Origin: an uncultured Pseudomonadota bacterium | GTDB lineage: Bacteria; Desulfobacterota; Syntrophorhabdia; Syntrophorhabdales; CAYQXL01 | NCBI GenBank assembly: GCA_964421445.1 | Contig: CAYQXL010000001.1 | Span: forward strand, 1,981 to 65,980 | DNA: 64,000 bases | Direction: 5' to 3' | Shown here: piece after piece, positions 10,821 to 28,024 of the stretch | Position numbering within the stretch: the first letter of the stretch is position 1 | How the letters are laid out: every line of letters begins with the position of its first letter | The notes under the pieces: generated by a model | Seen by the model: the letters and a program-made list of their open reading frames with translations, nothing else | What the model was told of the DNA's origin: nothing | Databases searched by the model: none | Position numbers and translations under genes: made by a program

Positions 10821-12284
10821 ATGTCAGGGAAAAAGTGGTTTGGTCTTCTTTTGCTTATCGTTGTGGCGCTTGTTGCCCTTGTCTACGCCAAAGCAAAGAT
10901 CAGTGTGGAAAATACATGGGTCGATAGCAGCAGGCCTCCCATCCAGAATGTTGCACTCGATAAAACAGGACTCCCGAGTTTCAGCGGACTAGTCAAGGCT
11001 GTCAGCCCGGCGGTTGTCAATATAAGCACCACGATGGTTGTCAAGGGTCCCGATATGAATGACCGCTTTAGCGGGCCCAATCAGTTCAGAGACTTTTTCG
11101 GCAACGATTTTTTCGAGAAGTTTTTCGGCGATATGCCCCGCCGGGATTTCAAGCAACGAAGCCTCGGATCGGGATTTATTATTGACCGCGAGGGATACAT
11201 CATCACGAACAACCACGTTGTTGAAAAAGCACAGACCATAAAAGTCCGTCTTACCGACGGCAACGATTACGATGCAACGGTGATAGGAAAAGACCCGAAG
11301 ACCGATATTGCCCTCATCAAGATCAATGCAAAAAAGAACCTCCCTGTGGCGACCCTCGGCGATTCGGACAAACTTGAAGTCGGTGACTGGGTTCTTGCCA
11401 TCGGGAATCCCTTCGGTCTCGAACATACGGTAACGGCGGGTATTGTCAGTGCCAAACAGAGGGTGATCGGCGCAGGACCGTATGATGATTTTATCCAGAC
11501 CGACGCATCCATCAATCCGGGAAACAGCGGCGGGCCTCTCTTTAACCTCAAAGGCGAGGTTGTTGGTCTCAATACGGCGATCATTTCAGGGGGGCAGGGA
11601 ATCGGTTTCGCTGTCCCCATAAACATTGCCAAGAATTTGCTGAGCCAGCTCAAGACGAAAGGAAAGGTCACACGGGGGTGGCTCGGTGTGGTGATACAGA
11701 AGGTAACCCCTGAACTGGCGAAGAACTTTGGTCTCAAGGATTCGGAAGGGGCGCTTGTGTCTGACGTCATGGACCAGAGTCCTGCTGATAAGGCCGGTGT
11801 AAAGCGGGGAGACGTCATTGTTGCTCTTGACGGAAAGAAGATCAAGGATATGGATACGCTTCCCCGGATGGTGGCGTCGACGGATGTGGGGAAGACGGTG
11901 AAGCTCGGTATCATCAGGGATGGCAAGACCTTCGATGTGAACGTTGTTATTGCCGAACTGAAGGACGAGAAGGTTGCTGCGTCGAGAAAACAGTCGGTGG
12001 AGAAAGATTTTGGCCTCGTTGTCCAGGATATCACTCCTGAAATCGCCAAACACATGGGCCTGAAGGATCGCCGCGGTGTCATTGTCACTGACGTTCAGCC
12101 CGGGAGTCCGGCAGCAGAGGCGGACATCCGGTCAGGCGACATCATTCTCGAAGTGGGCCGGAGGCAGCAGATAAAGAATCTGGCGGACTTCAGAGATGCG
12201 ATGAAAAAGTCCAATATCAAACAGGGTGTCACCTTGCTCGTAAAAAGGGAGAACGTCACCTTCTTTGCAACATTGAAGGAGTAA
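10821..12284 (+). CDS. htrA: Periplasmic serine endoprotease HtrA/DegP/DegQ family with two PDZ domains
   Basis: It has a signal anchor. The catalytic triad context is TNNHVV, DIALIK and GNSGGPLFN. Two PDZ-like repeats follow. Confidence 0.9.
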   Translation: MSGKKWFGLLLLIVVALVALVYAKAKISVENTWVDSSRPPIQNVALDKTGLPSFSGLVKAVSPAVVNISTTMVVKGPDMNDRFSGPNQFRDFFGNDFFEKFFGDMPRRDFKQRSLGSGFIIDREGYIITNNHVVEKAQTIKVRLTDGNDYDATVIGKDPKTDIALIKINAKKNLPVATLGDSDKLEVGDWVLAIGNPFGLEHTVTAGIVSAKQRVIGAGPYDDFIQTDASINPGNSGGPLFNLKGEVVGLNTAIISGGQGIGFAVPINIAKNLLSQLKTKGKVTRGWLGVVIQKVTPELAKNFGLKDSEGALVSDVMDQSPADKAGVKRGDVIVALDGKKIKDMDTLPRMVASTDVGKTVKLGIIRDGKTFDVNVVIAELKDEKVAASRKQSVEKDFGLVVQDITPEIAKHMGLKDRRGVIVTDVQPGSPAAEADIRSGDIILEVGRRQQIKNLADFRDAMKKSNIKQGVTLLVKRENVTFFATLKE

Positions 12285-23444: not shown

Positions 23445-24758
23445 TCACGATCGTTGTCGTGTTACCTGGCGGACAGTGTCCATGAATTGCCTCAGGCGCC
23501 GTTCGTATCCCCTGTCTGTGGGTCTGTAGTATCCTGTGCCTTTCATCTCGTCGGGGAGATATTCCTGCTCGACGATGCCGTTTTCGAAGTCATGGGGGTA
23601 GAGGTAGTCTTTTCCGTATCCCAGGTCGGCCATCAACTGGGTCGGAGCGTTTCTGAGGTGAAGGGGAACGGGGTAGGCAGGCAGGTGGCGGACATCACTG
23701 GAGACCTTGCCGTAGGCCCTGTATATGGCGTTGCTTTTCTCCGCCAGGGCCAGGTAAACGGCAGCCTGGGCTATGGCGAGAAATCCCTCGGGAGGCCCGA
23801 GAAATCTGAAGGCCTCTGTTGCGGCGACCGTCAGACCGAGGGCCGCCGGATCGGCATTTCCTATATCTTCTGACGCAAATCTGACCATTCTTCTGAGAAT
23901 ATAGAGAGGGTCTTCACCGTTTTCGATCATCCTGGCCAGCCAGTACAGAGAGGCGTCAGGATCCGATCCTCTCATGCTTTTGTGAAAGGCGCTGATGAAA
24001 TCGTAATGGTATTCGCCTTTTTTGTCATAGGTAGCTATGTTTCTCTGAAAAGCTTCCTTCAGAACGGTGTGATCGATCGTTGTTTTTCCCTCGCTGTCGA
24101 CTGCGGCAACTGTCGATGCTATCTCGAGAAGGTTGAGGGCATGGCGGGCATCGCCGTTGGCAAGGAGAGCAAGTTCTGCCATCGTTTCTTCGGACATGGT
24201 GAATTGCCTCTTTTTCAGCACCTCATCGTCTGAAAGAGCCCTTTTGACGATCTTTACCATATCCCCGGAAGAGAGGGGGTTTAACGTGATGACTTTCATC
24301 CGTGACAGGAGGGGGGAGATAATCTCAAAGGAAGGATTTTCCGTTGTTGCGCCGATCAGCGTGATTGTTCCGTTCTCCACGTGAGGAAGAAAACTGTCCT
24401 GCTGGAGCTTGTTGAACCGGTGGAATTCATCGACAAAGAGAATGATCCGCTGAAGCCTCGCTTTATGAAAAACCTCCTTCACCTCCTTCATGCCGATCGT
24501 GACAGCGCTGAGGGAGACGAAGGGGAGGTTCATCTCCCGGCCGATGAGCCAGCCGATCGTTGTCTTTCCCACGCCGCTTGGTCCCCAGAGTATAAGGGAG
24601 GGGATCTCCTTCTTTTCGACGAGTATGCGGAGGAGCTTTCCTTCCCCCAGGATCTGGTCCTGACCGACCACATCAGCGAGGCTTCGGGGTCGTATCCGGT
24701 CGGCGAGCGGGCTCCTCGGTTGTGAGGCTGTCTTCAGTGGTGTATCAAAGAGGTCCAT
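23445..24758 (-). CDS. rarA: Replication-associated recombination protein A (MgsA/RarA AAA+ ATPase)
   Basis: Walker A LILWGPSGVGKTT, Walker B ILFVDEFHRFNK, and a C-terminal MgsA domain (YDFISAFHKSMRGSDPDASLYW). Confidence 0.9.
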   Translation of the reverse strand: MDLFDTPLKTASQPRSPLADRIRPRSLADVVGQDQILGEGKLLRILVEKKEIPSLILWGPSGVGKTTIGWLIGREMNLPFVSLSAVTIGMKEVKEVFHKARLQRIILFVDEFHRFNKLQQDSFLPHVENGTITLIGATTENPSFEIISPLLSRMKVITLNPLSSGDMVKIVKRALSDDEVLKKRQFTMSEETMAELALLANGDARHALNLLEIASTVAAVDSEGKTTIDHTVLKEAFQRNIATYDKKGEYHYDFISAFHKSMRGSDPDASLYWLARMIENGEDPLYILRRMVRFASEDIGNADPAALGLTVAATEAFRFLGPPEGFLAIAQAAVYLALAEKSNAIYRAYGKVSSDVRHLPAYPVPLHLRNAPTQLMADLGYGKDYLYPHDFENGIVEQEYLPDEMKGTGYYRPTDRGYERRLRQFMDTVRQVTRQRS

Positions 24759-24905
24759 GACCGGTCTTCATCGTATCAGCAAATGATGGTCTATTTCAAG
24801 TCGGTGACCGGATGCGGCTGCCGGTCCTATTGTAACCCGGTCCATGGGTCCCTCCTTAAGCGGACAGACGAAGCCCGGGCATCATCTTCTACTTGTGACC
24901 TCACC

Positions 24906-24934
24906 TTGTGAAGGGAGAATGGGGAGGCTATAAT
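24906..24934 (+). promoter_or_regulatory. sigma70-type promoter candidate for the cooS-family gene
   Basis: TTGTGA (24906..24911), a 17-nt spacer, then TATAAT (24929..24934). AAGGAGG precedes ATG 24973. Confidence 0.45.
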
Positions 24935-24972
24935 GAAGTAAAAACCGAAGGGAAGTGTAAGGAGGGGTTATC

Positions 24973-26877
24973 ATGAAAGACGACAGAATTTCCCATCATG
25001 AGTCAGTGCGCCGGGTCTATGAGCGCATCAAAAAGGACGGCATGGACAACATCTGGGATCGCTACGAAGCACAGGGGTTGGGGCCGAACCCTGACCAGAG
25101 GTGTCCGTTCTGTCAGGGTGGGGTCCGGTGCGACCTCTGTTCCAACGGTCCCTGCCGGGCTGACGTGGCGAAGGACAAAAAGGGTGTATGCGGTATCACC
25201 GGCGACGGGATGGCAATGCGGATGATGCTTTTGAGAAATGTTATGGGGGCATCGACATACCACTATCACACGGAGCAGACGATCAAGACCCTCCGGGCGA
25301 CGGCGAAGAACCGTTCTCCCTTCCGGATCACCGAACCGGAGAAGCTGGCAACCTTTGCGACGCGCCTCGGTGTACCTCTTTCTTCTTCACCGGAAGAGAC
25401 AGCCCTCGCATTCTGCGATGCCGTGGAAGCGGACTTTAACGGGAAGTATGACGAACCGAGCCGGATTGTCGACATGCTTGCTCCCCAAGAGCGAAAAACG
25501 CGGTGGACCGAACTGGGCATATTCCCCGGTGGCATTTACGGCGAGATGATGTTTTCCACCAGTTCGTGTCTGACGAACGTCGACGGCTATTATGTCAGCC
25601 TCGCTCTGAAGGCGATGCGCCTCGGCATTGCCATGGCCTACCAGAGCCAGATCGTCAACGAATACTGTCAGGACATACTCTTCGGCATTCCCAGGCCCCA
25701 CGCGATCCGTGTCGATCTCGGTGTCCTTGACCCCGACTATGTCAATGCCCTGACGAACGGACACGAACCCTTTCTCGGTTTTGCCATGGTCCAGCTCGCC
25801 AGAACCGAAGAGTGGCAGGCGAAAGCGAGGGCTGCCGGGGCAAAGGGGCTGAGGGTCATCGCCAACATTGAAACGGGCCAGGAGATGATTCAGCGGTGGA
25901 CGATGGACGACGCATTCTATGGGTTTACGGGGAACTGGATTATGCAGGAGGCCGTTCTCGCGACAGGGTGTGTGGACCTCTTTGCCTGCGATATGAACTG
26001 TTCCATGCCGATCGATCCGCTCTATGCGGAGAAATACAGATTTAAACTGATTCCGGTCAGTCAACTCGTTGCCTTTGAGGGGGTATCGGAGAGGATCGAC
26101 TATGAACCGGAACGGGCCCGGGAGCAGGCGGCGGCGCTTCTCGACATGGCGATCGGGAACTTTCCCGGCAGGCGGTCGTCGGTTACACCGTTGACAGGAC
26201 TGCCGATGGGGGAGGCGATCGTTGGTTTTTCAACGGAGAGTATCGTCGACGCCCTCGGGGGAACGATCGAACCGCTGATGAATGCCGTCAGGAATGGGAC
26301 GATCCGTGGAATTGCAGGCCTCGTTTCGTGCACGACCCTCAGGGACACCGGCCAGGATGTTCACAGTGTTCGTGTTGCCAGGGAACTGATCAAAAGGGAT
26401 ATCCTTGTCCTGTCGATGGGGTGCGGCAATGGTGCCATGCAGGTGGCAGGCCTGTGCAGTCCCGACGCGAAAGCATTTGCCGGTCCCGGTCTCCGGTCAA
26501 TCTGCGAGGCTCTGGCGGTTCCGCCTGTTCTCAGTTACGGGACGTGTACCGATACAGGACGGATTGCCGACCTTCTGTCCGTTGTGTCTGCAGCCCTGGG
26601 CGGTGTCGCCATACCGGACCTTCCCGTTGTGGCCGTGGCGCCGGAATACATGGAGCAGAAGGCGACCATTGACGCTGTCTTTGCACTGGCTCTGGGACTC
26701 TATACATACGTTAATCCCGTCCCTACCGTAACCGGTGGTCTCAATCTCGTCAAACTGCTGACCGCTGATCTTCCTTCTGTCACAGGGGGGTTGCTGAACG
26801 TGGAGACCGATGCAGTCAAAGCCGTCGACGGCCTCGCGGAGCACATCGAAAGGAAGCGGAGGGCATTGGGGATGTAA
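24973..26877 (+). CDS. cooS: CooS-family (anaerobic CO dehydrogenase scaffold) protein with a deviant C-cluster ligand set
   Basis: N-terminal Cys clusters are CPFCQGGVRCDLCSNGPCRA...GVCGI. Conserved blocks are NGHEP, CDMNCSMP, LVSCTT, SMGCGNG and YGTCTDTGR. The canonical GICCTGNE block reads ANIETGQE here. Confidence 0.8.
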   Translation: MKDDRISHHESVRRVYERIKKDGMDNIWDRYEAQGLGPNPDQRCPFCQGGVRCDLCSNGPCRADVAKDKKGVCGITGDGMAMRMMLLRNVMGASTYHYHTEQTIKTLRATAKNRSPFRITEPEKLATFATRLGVPLSSSPEETALAFCDAVEADFNGKYDEPSRIVDMLAPQERKTRWTELGIFPGGIYGEMMFSTSSCLTNVDGYYVSLALKAMRLGIAMAYQSQIVNEYCQDILFGIPRPHAIRVDLGVLDPDYVNALTNGHEPFLGFAMVQLARTEEWQAKARAAGAKGLRVIANIETGQEMIQRWTMDDAFYGFTGNWIMQEAVLATGCVDLFACDMNCSMPIDPLYAEKYRFKLIPVSQLVAFEGVSERIDYEPERAREQAAALLDMAIGNFPGRRSSVTPLTGLPMGEAIVGFSTESIVDALGGTIEPLMNAVRNGTIRGIAGLVSCTTLRDTGQDVHSVRVARELIKRDILVLSMGCGNGAMQVAGLCSPDAKAFAGPGLRSICEALAVPPVLSYGTCTDTGRIADLLSVVSAALGGVAIPDLPVVAVAPEYMEQKATIDAVFALALGLYTYVNPVPTVTGGLNLVKLLTADLPSVTGGLLNVETDAVKAVDGLAEHIERKRRALGM

Positions 26878-26918: not shown

Positions 26919-26950
26919 CCGGTGACAGGCCGGCTCAGGCCTGTCACCGG
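26919..26950. terminator. Bidirectional hairpin between convergent genes
   Basis: ccggtgacaggcc-ggctca-ggcctgtcaccgg is a perfect 13-bp GC-rich stem, followed by gttctcttct on the + strand. It lies between the cooS-family stop (26877) and the stop of the minus-strand selenoprotein gene (26959). Confidence 0.6.
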
Positions 26951-26958
26951 GTTCTCTT

Positions 26959-27531
26959 CTAAGGAATGAGTCTGTACGGCATCGCTCTCTTGGTCCACAT
27001 ATTTCCCGGATATGCGCCTGAGAGCTGATCCCATGCCTGGCGGAGGGGTTTGGGATCATGGGTATGTTTATATCCTGTCACGCCTTTCCAGAATATGGCC
27101 GCAGGTGCCGAATCGGTGGCGGAAAAGGTGGTGATGATCCGATCGAGGAGTGCGAGGGTTTCGGGATATTTGTCAAAGTCGTAATACATCTTTGATATGC
27201 CGAGAAGCACTGAGGGAATAAATTCTTCAACGGTCAGATAGCCGACGGTCCGGGAATGCTCCTTTCCTTCCCAGTCGAGAATAATCAGGGCCGGAGTCCA
27301 CTTGATGCCGAACTGTGTCGCCAGGGGCTCCGAGTCTGCCGGGATGCGAAGGGGAACAACGGTCTGGTTGACGAAATCTGTTACAGCTTTGTCGGGATAC
27401 GTCACCGTATCCATCTGCTGGCACCCAATTCACCCAGGGTTGAAAAAGTCGAGAAATATTGGTTTCTTCTCAGCCGCTGCCCTGGCCACGGCTCTGCTCA
27501 TATCCGTTTCCCATACGATTCCGTTTCCCAT
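26959..27531 (-). CDS. Thioredoxin-fold selenoprotein (UxxC redox motif; in-frame TGA = Sec at codon 34)
   Basis: The track lists only 26959..27414. Upstream in the same frame: AGGAGG, 5 nt, then ATG(27531) GGA AAC... This gives MGNGIVWETDMSRAVARAAAEKKPIFLDFFNPG-TGA(27432..27430)-IGCQQMDTVTYPDKAVTDFVN... The TGA falls at the first Cys of the family's KPxxxDFxxxxCxxCxxMD motif. A hairpin follows 17 nt downstream. Confidence 0.75.
27395..27412 (-). other. Candidate bacterial SECIS hairpin
   Basis: On the mRNA strand it reads GGAUACG-GUGA-CGUAUCC, a 7-bp stem with a 4-nt loop starting with G. The stem begins 17 nt after the UGA. Confidence 0.55.
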
Positions 27532-27688: not shown

Positions 27689-28024
27689 ATGAAAAGAGAG
27701 AATCGGCCGGACCCTGAACCGGAGGAACGGTTCGATACGGTCCGGCGGCATATCGTGAACCTTTTGTGCGAATACGAACTTTCGGCCCGGGAGATAAGCC
27801 GGACGCTCCATGTGCCCGAGCGGGAGGTCAATGACCATCTCGATCATATCCGCCGGAGTCTCCACCATCAAAACCGGAGGCTTGTCGTTACCCCCGCCCT
27901 CTGTGATCACTGCGGGTTTGTCTTTTCGAAGAGAGACCGGGTTTCAAAACCGGGCAAATGTCCCGATTGCCACAGAGGGACGATACGTGCGCCCCGCTTT
28001 TCAATCCCTACTTCCTCACGGTGA
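27689..28024 (+). CDS. Small transcriptional regulator: HTH domain fused to a C-terminal zinc ribbon
   Basis: RFDTVRRHIVNLLCEYELSAREISRTLHVPEREVNDHLDHI is wHTH-like. It is followed by CDHCGFVF...KCPDCH (CxxC...CxxC). Confidence 0.6.
   Translation: MKRENRPDPEPEERFDTVRRHIVNLLCEYELSAREISRTLHVPEREVNDHLDHIRRSLHHQNRRLVVTPALCDHCGFVFSKRDRVSKPGKCPDCHRGTIRAPRFSIPTSSR

Follow-up and report, generated by a model that had tools for sequence, protein, structure and literature searches.

The window, a stretch of 64,000 nucleotides, carries a solitary cooS-V-type gene (P0001) with a divergent rarA/mgsA gene on one side and a convergent gene for a selenocysteine-containing (Sec) thioredoxin on the other (Table 1). 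P0001 is a real ORF; it begins with an ATG and encodes 634 amino acids uninterrupted by internal stops. Pfam family PF03063 matched the protein along its whole length (residues 52-614, E 2e-132). A promoter-like site was located ~40 nt 5' of the start codon, and the hairpin beyond the 3' end, as judged from its sequence, is likely a bidirectional terminator. With its own promoter-like site and terminator hairpin, the gene would be monocistronic.

Table 1. Features of the cooS-V-type gene, its product and its flanking genes, with positions in the window.
Feature	Position	Strand	Remarks
rarA/mgsA (AAA+ ATPase)	23445..24758	-	Divergent neighbour of cooS-V; context only
Putative sigma-70-like promoter	24906..24934	+	TTGTGA, 17 nt spacer, TATAAT; 10/12 consensus positions; consensus match only
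Shine-Dalgarno AGGAGG	24960..24965	+	7 nt ahead of ATG; read from sequence
cooS-V-type gene (P0001)	24973..26877	+	Prismane/CODH family, clade D, structural group D-1
D-cluster motif Cys44-x2-Cys47, type III (CX2C)	25102..25113	+	Cys38/Cys41 of CooS-V_Ch
B-cluster [4Fe-4S] motif Cys53, Cys56, Cys61, Cys73	25129..25191	+	Alignment to CooS-V_Ch; invariant 80/80
Tyr96, replacing acid-base His93 of canonical CODH	25258..25260	+	STYHYH vs ASHSDH; Tyr in 80/80
His264 (NGHEP), predicted active-site ligand	25762..25764	+	His259 of CooS-V_Ch; 80/80
Glu300 (IETGQE), replacing Cys295 of CODH-II	25870..25872	+	Glu295 of CooS-V_Ch; 80/80
Asn342-Cys343 (DMNCS)	25996..26001	+	Asn337/Cys338 of CooS-V_Ch; 80/80
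Cys453, Cys484, Cys525	26329..26547	+	Cys449, Cys480, Cys521 of CooS-V_Ch; 80/80
Glu561-Gln-Lys563 (YMEQK)	26653..26661	+	Glu561 is Glu556 of CooS-V_Ch, Glu494 of Hcp
GC-rich hairpin, 13-bp stem	26919..26950	no strand	Between convergent cooS-V and selenoprotein genes
Thioredoxin-fold gene, in-frame TGA (U-x-x-C)	26959..27531	-	Convergent neighbour of cooS-V; context only

The two flanking genes are those named in the original prediction, and the in-frame TGA of the thioredoxin-fold gene falls in an FNPG-U-IGC motif. A functional tie of cooS-V to its neighbours in the window was considered and rejected in favour of lineage-specific synteny, as these adjacencies are rarely kept among 80 homologous loci: rarA adjoins cooS-V in just 4 of them, the Sec-thioredoxin is found no more than 6 kb away in just 2, and the HTH-Zn-ribbon, PBP, ThiL-like and MBL genes of the window are essentially never nearby. 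Genes for cooC, cooF and acs were sought in the window and none was found, as had been claimed; other PF03063 and CbiA matches on the same contig (C1) lie outside the window. Likewise, the window revealed no ferredoxin gene adjoining cooS-V and no regulator coupled to it. No HcpR/FNR-type site (TTGAYN4RTCAA, up to 1 mismatch) was detected at positions 24760-24972; a site of this type, TTGATttaaGTCAA, is present upstream of the hcp gene of the genome. A search for a conserved upstream motif in 13 Syntrophorhabdaceae-type orthologues gave none, the upstream regions being unalignable. Recent horizontal arrival of the gene was also rejected: its GC content (57-59%) does not stand out from that of the surrounding DNA (51-60%), and neither a tRNA gene nor any other sign of integration was found near it.

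Comparison to solved structures placed P0001 closest to CooS-V of Carboxydothermus hydrogenoformans (CooS-V_Ch; 7b7q, E 1.9e-198), with true CODH structures at E 3e-114 or weaker. The AlphaFold (AF2) model of P0001 (pLDDT 92) superimposed on 7b9a/7b7q with a TM score of 0.96-0.97, an rmsd of 1.5 A and 50% identity over 631 columns, compared to 28-36% identity to true CODHs. Together with the full-length PF03063 match, this fold bears out the CODH scaffold proposed for the protein, which is present at full length (~630 residues, three domains). In a tree of 58 CooS-type proteins, P0001 fell inside a clade with Glu at the Cys295 position (SH-aLRT 100), apart from both the canonical CooS enzymes and Hcp; the other CooS of the genome clustered with the canonical CC-type enzymes, and Hcp formed a distant outgroup. 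The SH-aLRT value of 100 is that of the clade of P0122 and the IETGQE group, and sister groups retain Cys. The tree was composed of unnamed 50%-cluster representatives in place of the CODH-I to CODH-V references, and the link of P0001 to CooS-V_Ch itself is drawn from the PDB sequence search and the fold match. Within this clade, P0001 is part of a closely knit IETGQE subgroup, whose members are 73-80% identical even between distant phyla of Bacteria and Archaea; it spans Desulfobacterota, Chloroflexota, WOR-3, Asgard archaea, Bathyarchaeia and Methanolobus.

Residue conservation was scored across 80 close homologues of P0001, and all residues diagnostic of CooS-V and structural group D-1 were found to be invariant (80/80). 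The motifs quoted in the original prediction (NGHEP, CDMNCSMP, LVSCTT, SMGCGNG, YGTCTDTGR and ANIETGQE) are all present in the protein. Its central claim, that Glu takes the place of the Cys295 ligand, held in every alignment: Glu300 aligned without gaps to Glu295 of CooS-V_Ch (7b7q). In Thermococcus CODH (6t7j) and CODH-IV (6elq), the residue opposite Glu300 was the latter Cys of CCTGNE, and in the canonical CooS encoded by the same genome it was that of the CC pair. At this position the alignment gives Glu, not Cys, and its presence in 80/80 homologues argues that Glu300 is not an error. The canonical C-cluster set of five Cys and one His is thus incomplete in P0001, as is the canonical pair of His93 and Lys563, of which Lys563 is retained and the His, which in the other CooS of the genome belongs to ASHSDH, is replaced by Tyr96. 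Where canonical CODHs have Q-C, P0001 and Hcp have N-C (Asn342-Cys343 in P0001), and where canonical CODHs have Ser, Thr or Asn, P0001 has Glu561; the N-C and E-Q-K motifs are common to P0001 and the genome's own Hcp but absent from its canonical CooS. The B-cluster cysteines align with C47-X2-C50-X4-C55-X12-C68 of CooS-V_Ch. At residue 47, part of the D-cluster motif, canonical enzymes have Gly.

These residues correspond to those described for CooS-V_Ch (PDB 7B7Q/7B7T/7B95/7B97/7B9A; Jeoung et al. 2022, PMC9311411), where Cys38/Cys41 hold a subunit-bridging [2Fe-2S] cluster and Cys449, Cys480 and Cys521 ligate the hybrid cluster, with a persulfide on Cys521. Its full ligand set (the active-site His, Glu295, Cys338, Cys449, Cys480, Cys521 and Glu556, with Asn337) is matched in P0001, as are the CX2C D-cluster and B-cluster motifs. 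P0001 likewise displays the entire signature of structural group D-1 (Inoue et al. 2019, PMC6344411), namely the H-E-C-C-C-C ligand pattern, Lys with Glu two residues earlier, the type III D-cluster with Gly41 changed to Cys41 and, as a hallmark of the group, Tyr for the acid-base His; the D-1 neighbours listed in that study (a COG1063 dehydrogenase and HypA/HypB) are absent beside P0001. Compared to canonical CooS/AcsA (the genome's own copy and CODH-II, 1SU6), P0001 shares the scaffold, the B-cluster, four of the five C-cluster Cys, the His and Lys563, but differs in Cys295 to Glu, His93 to Tyr, Ser to Glu at 561, a CX2C rather than CxxG...C D-cluster, and an overall identity of 28-36%. Genes for cooC, cooF, acs or a hydrogenase usually, though not obligatorily, accompany canonical CODHs; none of them occurs in the window. 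With Hcp, P0001 shares the PF03063 superfamily, the active-site motifs and the predicted cluster chemistry, but it belongs to another clade and architecture, and by analogy to CooS-V_Ch it would be expected to dimerize as CODHs do, with the D-cluster bridging the subunits. The hybrid-cluster potentials of CooS-V_Ch are much more negative than those of Hcp, and its hydroxylamine activity is ~100-fold lower (PMC9311411).

The genome was found to encode a single canonical CODH, which is acs-linked, along with one Hcp and one CooS-V type. The gene for the canonical CooS/AcsA (contig C17, L016:9388-11334, minus strand) is part of a complete acs operon that also includes a CooC-like gene; P0001 is 35% identical to this protein and falls in a different clade. 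The true Hcp (contig C7, L017:6626-8260) scored 818 bits on the Hcp model. Two CooC-like genes were identified, one within the acs operon on C17 (L016:13420-14196, minus strand) and an orphan with no obvious client on C16 (L109:5960-6739), neither of them near P0001; these calls are based on a CbiA domain with GKGGVGKT and CxC motifs, as the NCBIfam models named no candidate. C. hydrogenoformans has a similar inventory, in that both genomes carry true CODHs and Hcp as well as a solitary CooS-V-type gene. Cultivable carriers include Syntrophorhabdus aromaticivorans, Methanolobus and Clostridium autoethanogenum.

Automatic annotation would give a different answer. P0001 scored 693 bits on the NCBIfam equivalog model TIGR01702, well above the cut-off of 478, so pipelines will call it a CODH catalytic subunit; the model thus fails to separate CooS-V types from true CODHs. 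Hcp equivalog models (TIGR01703/NF003658) gave no match to P0001 at E <= 0.01. Public records name 77-80% identical relatives of P0001 anaerobic CO dehydrogenase.

Taken together, we consider P0001 very probably a CooS-V-type enzyme, that is, a nickel-free Fe/S/O hybrid-cluster reductase on a CODH scaffold. Its membership in this class, which was already described in 2019 (PMC6344411) and 2022 (PMC9311411), is seen in its sequence and fold, its ligand pattern and its clade, together with the inventory of the genome and the statistics on neighbourhoods, and the kinship to deviant CooS proteins with an Fe-S-O hybrid cluster, proposed from the outset, is thereby supported. The biochemistry is read by analogy to CooS-V_Ch, the sole characterised member and only 50% identical to P0001. 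CooS-V_Ch is nickel-free, has an Fe/S/O hybrid cluster, oxidizes no CO, reduces no CO2, reduces hydroxylamine very slowly (kcat 0.13 per s) and has no detectable NO reduction (PMC9311411). By this analogy, P0001 would be a nickel-free reductase with a ferredoxin donor and would not interconvert CO and CO2; the earlier view that it is probably no true CO dehydrogenase is supported by its CooS-V placement. In the proposed mechanism, the Ni,Fe C-cluster site of a homodimeric CODH scaffold would be rebuilt for the hybrid cluster, with His264, Glu300, Cys343, Cys453, Cys484, Cys525 and Glu561 as predicted ligands. Electrons would pass through the subunit-bridging [2Fe-2S] D-cluster (Cys44, Cys47) and the [4Fe-4S] B-cluster (Cys53, 56, 61, 73) to a hybrid cluster that may toggle between a reduced [4Fe-3S] and an oxidised oxo-bridged form, reducing a small oxidised substrate such as a hydroxylamine-like compound, an N-oxide or another molecule. 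These electrons would likely come from a ferredoxin, for which the FrdX-like protein whose gene adjoins hcp is a possible candidate.

This candidate donor emerged from the neighbourhoods of the 80 cooS-V loci, in which the recurrent families are an FrdX-like ferredoxin, an MFS transporter, a zinc ribbon, a histidine kinase and Rrf2, with no Ni maturase or C1 gene among them. The FrdX-like gene lies 12-52 nt from cooS-V on the same strand in ~16 of the 80 loci, representing several phyla; it flanks cooS-V on different sides depending on the phylum and adjoins it directly in Dehalococcoidia, WOR-3 and some archaea. Its homologue in the genome under study (L017:8318-9085) is immediately 3' of hcp (BLASTP 43% identity over the alignment, E 1e-75). 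Among 121 genomes sampled from the phylum, 77 gave an FrdX-like match, and in at least 30 a member of this family and an Hcp-sized prismane gene were no more than 2 kb apart. A ferredoxin partner common to Hcp and CooS-V suggests an Hcp-like reductase role for the CooS-V type; since the window has neither an adjacent ferredoxin nor an HcpR-type site, for P0001 this role is drawn from other genomes. The MFS transporter found 3' of cooS-V in 12 deltaproteobacterial loci was set aside as uninformative, being a generic oxalate/formate/lactate-type match below cut-off, and no orthologue was found in the genome (best match 33% identity).

That P0001 is instead a genuine Ni,Fe-CODH of an unusual kind appears very unlikely. 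In such an enzyme, the pendant Fe would be bound by Glu300 in place of Cys, maturation would be carried out in trans by either of the CooC-like ATPases, and CO would be oxidized or CO2 reduced in vivo. The complete CODH fold and TIGR01702 score of P0001 fit this reading, the orphan CooC-like gene on C16 could be thought to await a client, and Methanosarcina acetivorans genetics, as cited in PMC6344411, have been read as a hint of a CO-related role for D-1 proteins; moreover, the CooS-V_Ch that was studied came from E. coli cells lacking a cognate maturase, and its native host might conceivably make a Ni form. Against this, CooS-V_Ch has neither Ni nor activity with CO or CO2, and the C295E and C295A variants of CODH-II, as cited in PMC9311411, are Ni-deficient and have lost CO oxidation. 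P0001 additionally has Tyr for the acid-base His and a second, Hcp-typical carboxylate ligand, searches beside its gene for CooC-like, CooF-type and acs genes gave none, and the recurrent neighbours described above include no Ni maturase or C1 gene.

A role mainly as a redox or small-molecule sensor, with rearrangement of the hybrid cluster read by a partner or regulator, is likewise improbable, if somewhat less so. The extremely low catalytic rates of CooS-V_Ch would suit a sensor, a preprint on genomic context (10.1101/2025.09.14.676152) suggests that clade D proteins act in regulation or sensing and reports regulators among their neighbours, and Rrf2 regulators or PAS-GAF histidine kinases do occur upstream of cooS-V in some loci. 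In the window, by contrast, the gene has no coupled regulator; in other loci its tight recurrent partner encodes, as with Hcp, an electron-transfer protein, and the strictly conserved wire from D-cluster through B-cluster to active site suits turnover better than sensing. Decay of P0001 into a functionless paralogue of the acs-linked CooS could be imagined for a solitary gene that has lost one canonical ligand, but is effectively refuted by the 73-80% identity in distant phyla and the invariant cluster ligands (80/80); the ORF is moreover intact, with a ribosome binding site, promoter-like site and terminator, and its low identity to the genome's CooS and separate clade do not fit such a descent.

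For the preferred reading of P0001 as a CooS-V-type hybrid-cluster reductase, a broader and rather doubtful extension is that hybrid-cluster reductases have a second line in the CooS-V types, one that moves horizontally and uses the dedicated FrdX-type ferredoxin of Hcp on a substrate unlike that of Hcp. If this extension were true, one hcp-linked frdX would serve both Hcp and CooS-V in genomes like this one, the 73-80% identity of the IETGQE subgroup between Bacteria and Archaea (Asgard included) would reflect a specific substrate and not a redundant back-up, and that substrate could be, for example, another nitrogen- or oxygen-containing small molecule.

The window adds no new kind of system, and the FrdX-like partner is a modest addition to a known class. 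As a recurring partner common to Hcp and CooS-V, however modest, it provides a concrete candidate donor for assays. The main import is for annotation: TIGR01702 labels P0001 an anaerobic CO dehydrogenase, and anyone reconstructing the metabolism of this Syntrophorhabdaceae-like genome from that label would wrongly include a second CO-oxidising enzyme.

By sequence search of the PDB, the window protein was found to match CooS-V of Carboxydothermus hydrogenoformans (CooS-V_Ch, 7b7q) best by far (E 1.9e-198), followed by true CODHs at 3e-114 or weaker. Within a block free of gaps, E300 of the window protein aligned to residue 295 of CooS-V (IETGQE versus IESGQE), and the same column held the second Cys of CCTGNE in Thermococcus CODH (6t7j) and CODH-IV (6elq); in the canonical CooS of the same genome it is likewise occupied by the latter Cys of a CC pair. 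This position corresponds to the change from Cys295 of the Ni,Fe enzyme CODH-II to Glu295 in CooS-V described by Jeoung et al. (PMC9311411). Thus, the original prediction of a Glu for a C-cluster Cys was borne out, its reference block and its alignment were both right, and in these alignments the Cys295-equivalent residue of the window protein was Glu, not Cys. Judged from its residues (see table), the window protein carries exactly the signature of structural group D-1 of clade D (Inoue et al. 2019, PMC6344411), namely a type III D-cluster, H-E-C-C-C-C, Tyr, Lys and an Hcp-like Glu. All of these residues, the B-cluster cysteines included, were invariant in 80 of 80 homologues taken from species-representative genomes. 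The N-C and E-Q-K motifs of the window protein were common to the Hcp of the same genome, whereas its canonical CooS has Q-C and S-E-K.

An AlphaFold2 model of the window protein (pLDDT 92.1, pTM 0.92) superposed best on CooS-V (7b9a/7b7q; TM 0.96-0.97, rmsd 1.5 A, 50% identity), with true CODHs next in the fold search at 28-36% identity. A maximum-likelihood tree of 58 CooS-type sequences combined representatives of 50%-identity clusters with twelve close homologues, the own-genome canonical CooS and, as outgroup, Hcp; 11 fragmentary or degenerate rows were excluded. The window protein was placed in a clade (SH-aLRT 100) whose members all carry Glu at position 300, and the other CooS of the genome grouped apart with canonical CC/Ser/Lys enzymes. 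Along the successive sister groups the traits arose stepwise: Glu561 (P0129/P0130), then the CX2C motif with position 300 still Cys (P0124/P0127/P0128), and last the Cys to Glu exchange at position 300. As the tree contained no named CooS-V_Ch sequence, the link to that protein comes from sequence and fold searches of the PDB.

Homologues of 73-80% identity were detected in bacteria (Syntrophorhabdaceae, likely the family of the source genome, Dehalococcoidia, WOR-3, Acidobacteriota and Planctomycetota) and in archaea (Asgard archaea, Bathyarchaeia, Thermoplasmata, Methanolobus and Methanoperedenaceae). The Asgard and other archaeal carriers among the 80 homologous loci included Helarchaeota, Jordarchaeia, Freyarchaeota, Promethearchaeota, Bathyarchaeia and Methanolobus. 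Within the phylum of the window, only 11 of 121 sampled genomes had the CooS-V type. High identity across domains and patchy occurrence together point to strong purifying selection and horizontal transfer, and rule out a decaying paralogue. cooS-V is an unusually conserved, mobile single gene. The GC content of the window gene was unremarkable compared to its surroundings.

The source assembly (2.59 Mb, 127 contigs, 97.8% complete) was found to encode three prismane-family genes: the window gene, a canonical cooS/acsA and a bona fide hcp (contig C7; 818 bits on NF003658). The canonical gene lies on contig C17 within a complete acs operon (acsB, acsC, acsD, acsE, folD, acsV and a MinD-type P-loop gene), the last of these being CooC/AcsF-like based on its GKGGVGKT and CxC motifs. 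A second CooC-like gene, on contig C16, is isolated: it is flanked by a TrkA-type K+ channel gene on one side and an acyltransferase/ftsK block on the other, and is distant from all CODH and ACS genes. The proposed search for cooC revealed two CooC-like genes elsewhere in the genome and none beside the window gene. This inventory matches the published pattern for D-1 enzymes, which are mostly solitary and found in genomes that already have an active CODH and usually Hcp (PMC9311411; bioRxiv 10.1101/2025.09.14.676152).

From predicted signals, the window gene looks like a monocistronic unit. The rarA gene and convergent Sec-thioredoxin noted originally were both present, the latter with its in-frame TGA; across the 80 homologous loci the window neighbours were not conserved partners of cooS-V, and the 111-aa HTH/zinc-ribbon family was absent near cooS-V in all of them. 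The heptamer CTTGTGA occurs twice within 24901-24921, 13 nt apart, the second copy overlapping the -35-like hexamer; this pair could be chance or an operator. Comparison of orthologue upstream regions revealed no conservation, the heptamer pair included. No HcpR-type site was found 5' of the window cooS-V, whereas the hcp of the same genome has one. In Syntrophorhabdaceae-type relatives, an MFS transporter gene lies 80-200 nt downstream of cooS-V (L083:7986-9266 and 11 other deltaproteobacterial loci), and in locus L083 a Sec-thioredoxin homologue lies beyond the transporter gene, at 10917-11483 on the minus strand. An apparent loss of the intervening segment in the window genome would have made cooS-V and the selenoprotein gene neighbours.

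All ORFs within 4 kb of cooS-V in the 80 loci were clustered. The commonest recurring neighbour, about 255 aa long, carries an N-terminal 2x[4Fe-4S] ferredoxin domain; its Cys-rich C-terminal part (about 190 aa) matched no Pfam model. By position and domain make-up, this family probably corresponds to frdX, the hcp-linked ferredoxin-like gene of Rodionov et al. 2005 (PMC1274295), knockdown of which sensitises Clostridioides difficile to NO (PMC12915319). The gene was within 4 kb of cooS-V in 21 of the 80 loci and, in about 16, on the same strand at just 12-52 nt; it was upstream in Dehalococcoidia and Methanophagales and downstream in WOR-3. In WOR-3 a Rrf2-family (IscR/NsrR-like) regulator precedes cooS-V (L038, L040, L067, L072, L088), forming a compact three-gene cassette with the downstream FrdX-like gene in all of these loci except L038. 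PAS-GAF histidine kinases were observed 5' of cooS-V in Methanolobus and some Acidobacteriota/Planctomycetota loci. In the source genome, the sole full-length FrdX-like homologue lies directly 3' of hcp (43% identity, E 1e-75). The family was present in 77 of 121 genomes of the phylum; by coordinates, at least 30 of these 77 have it within 2 kb of, and on the same strand as, a prismane gene of Hcp size. In three other genomes of the phylum it was within 2 kb of the cooS-V homologue.

Features of the window protein, the window and related loci (coordinates without an L-handle are window positions; L017 and L109, contigs C7 and C16 of the source genome; other L-handles, cooS-V loci of other genomes)
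Feature	Position	Strand	Remarks
D-cluster cysteines	C44, C47		Cys38/Cys41 of CooS-V_Ch; CX2C, binds bridging [2Fe-2S] D-cluster
B-cluster cysteines	C53, C56, C61, C73
Tyr	Tyr96		in place of acid-base His93 of canonical enzymes
His	H264		His259 of CooS-V_Ch
Asn-Cys	N342, C343		Asn337/Cys338 of CooS-V_Ch
Cysteines	C453, C484, C525		Cys449, Cys480, Cys521 of CooS-V_Ch
Second carboxylate ligand	E561		Glu556 of CooS-V_Ch; two residues before Lys (K563)
rarA/mgsA	23445-24758	-	divergent neighbour
Sigma-70-like promoter match	24906-24934	+	predicted, consensus match; TTGTGA-17 nt-TATAAT
AGGAGG	7 nt before ATG	+	read from sequence
cooS-V-type ORF	24973-26877	+	intact, 634 aa
13-bp GC-rich hairpin	26919-26950		predicted; 3' of cooS-V-type ORF
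Thioredoxin-fold gene	26959-27531	-	convergent; frame crosses TGA within FNPG-U-IGC motif
PF0610-like HTH and zinc-ribbon protein	27689-28024	+	111 aa; PF21476, PF23470; divergent from selenoprotein gene
HcpR/FNR-type site TTGATttaaGTCAA	L017:6541-6554		5' of hcp; one mismatch to published consensus TTGACnnnnGTCAA
hcp, then 255-aa FrdX-like ferredoxin	L017:6626-9085
Second CooC-like P-loop gene	L109:5960-6739		GKGGVGKT plus CFC
FrdX-like genes	L054:5200-5985; L067:7918-8712; L087:5148-5948		in cooS-V loci
PAS-GAF histidine kinases	L075:4290-5891; L086:2085-3713; L093:2295-3692; L046:1978-5724		5' of cooS-V

The window protein matched PF03063 end to end (2e-132) and scored 693 bits against the NCBIfam equivalog TIGR01702 ("anaerobic CO dehydrogenase catalytic subunit"; cut-off 478), and automatic annotation will therefore name it CODH, as public records already name relatives of 77-80% identity. 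Sequence, fold and tree placement supported its membership in a deviant CooS class rather than among canonical CODHs, and the CooS-V/D-1 signature, fold and tree likewise upheld the original caution that the name CO dehydrogenase would likely be wrong. This finding is a correct annotation warning and not a discovery, the class having been published as D-1 in 2019 and, with the structure and biochemistry of CooS-V, in 2022. CooS-V_Ch displays no NO reduction and very slow hydroxylamine turnover (PMC9311411); from this 50%-identical protein we infer that the window protein would be Ni-free. The sole increment over the published class is the FrdX link: a partner family common to Hcp and CooS-V types supports an Hcp-like reductase role for the latter, and the single FrdX-like gene of the genome could serve both Hcp and the window CooS-V type.
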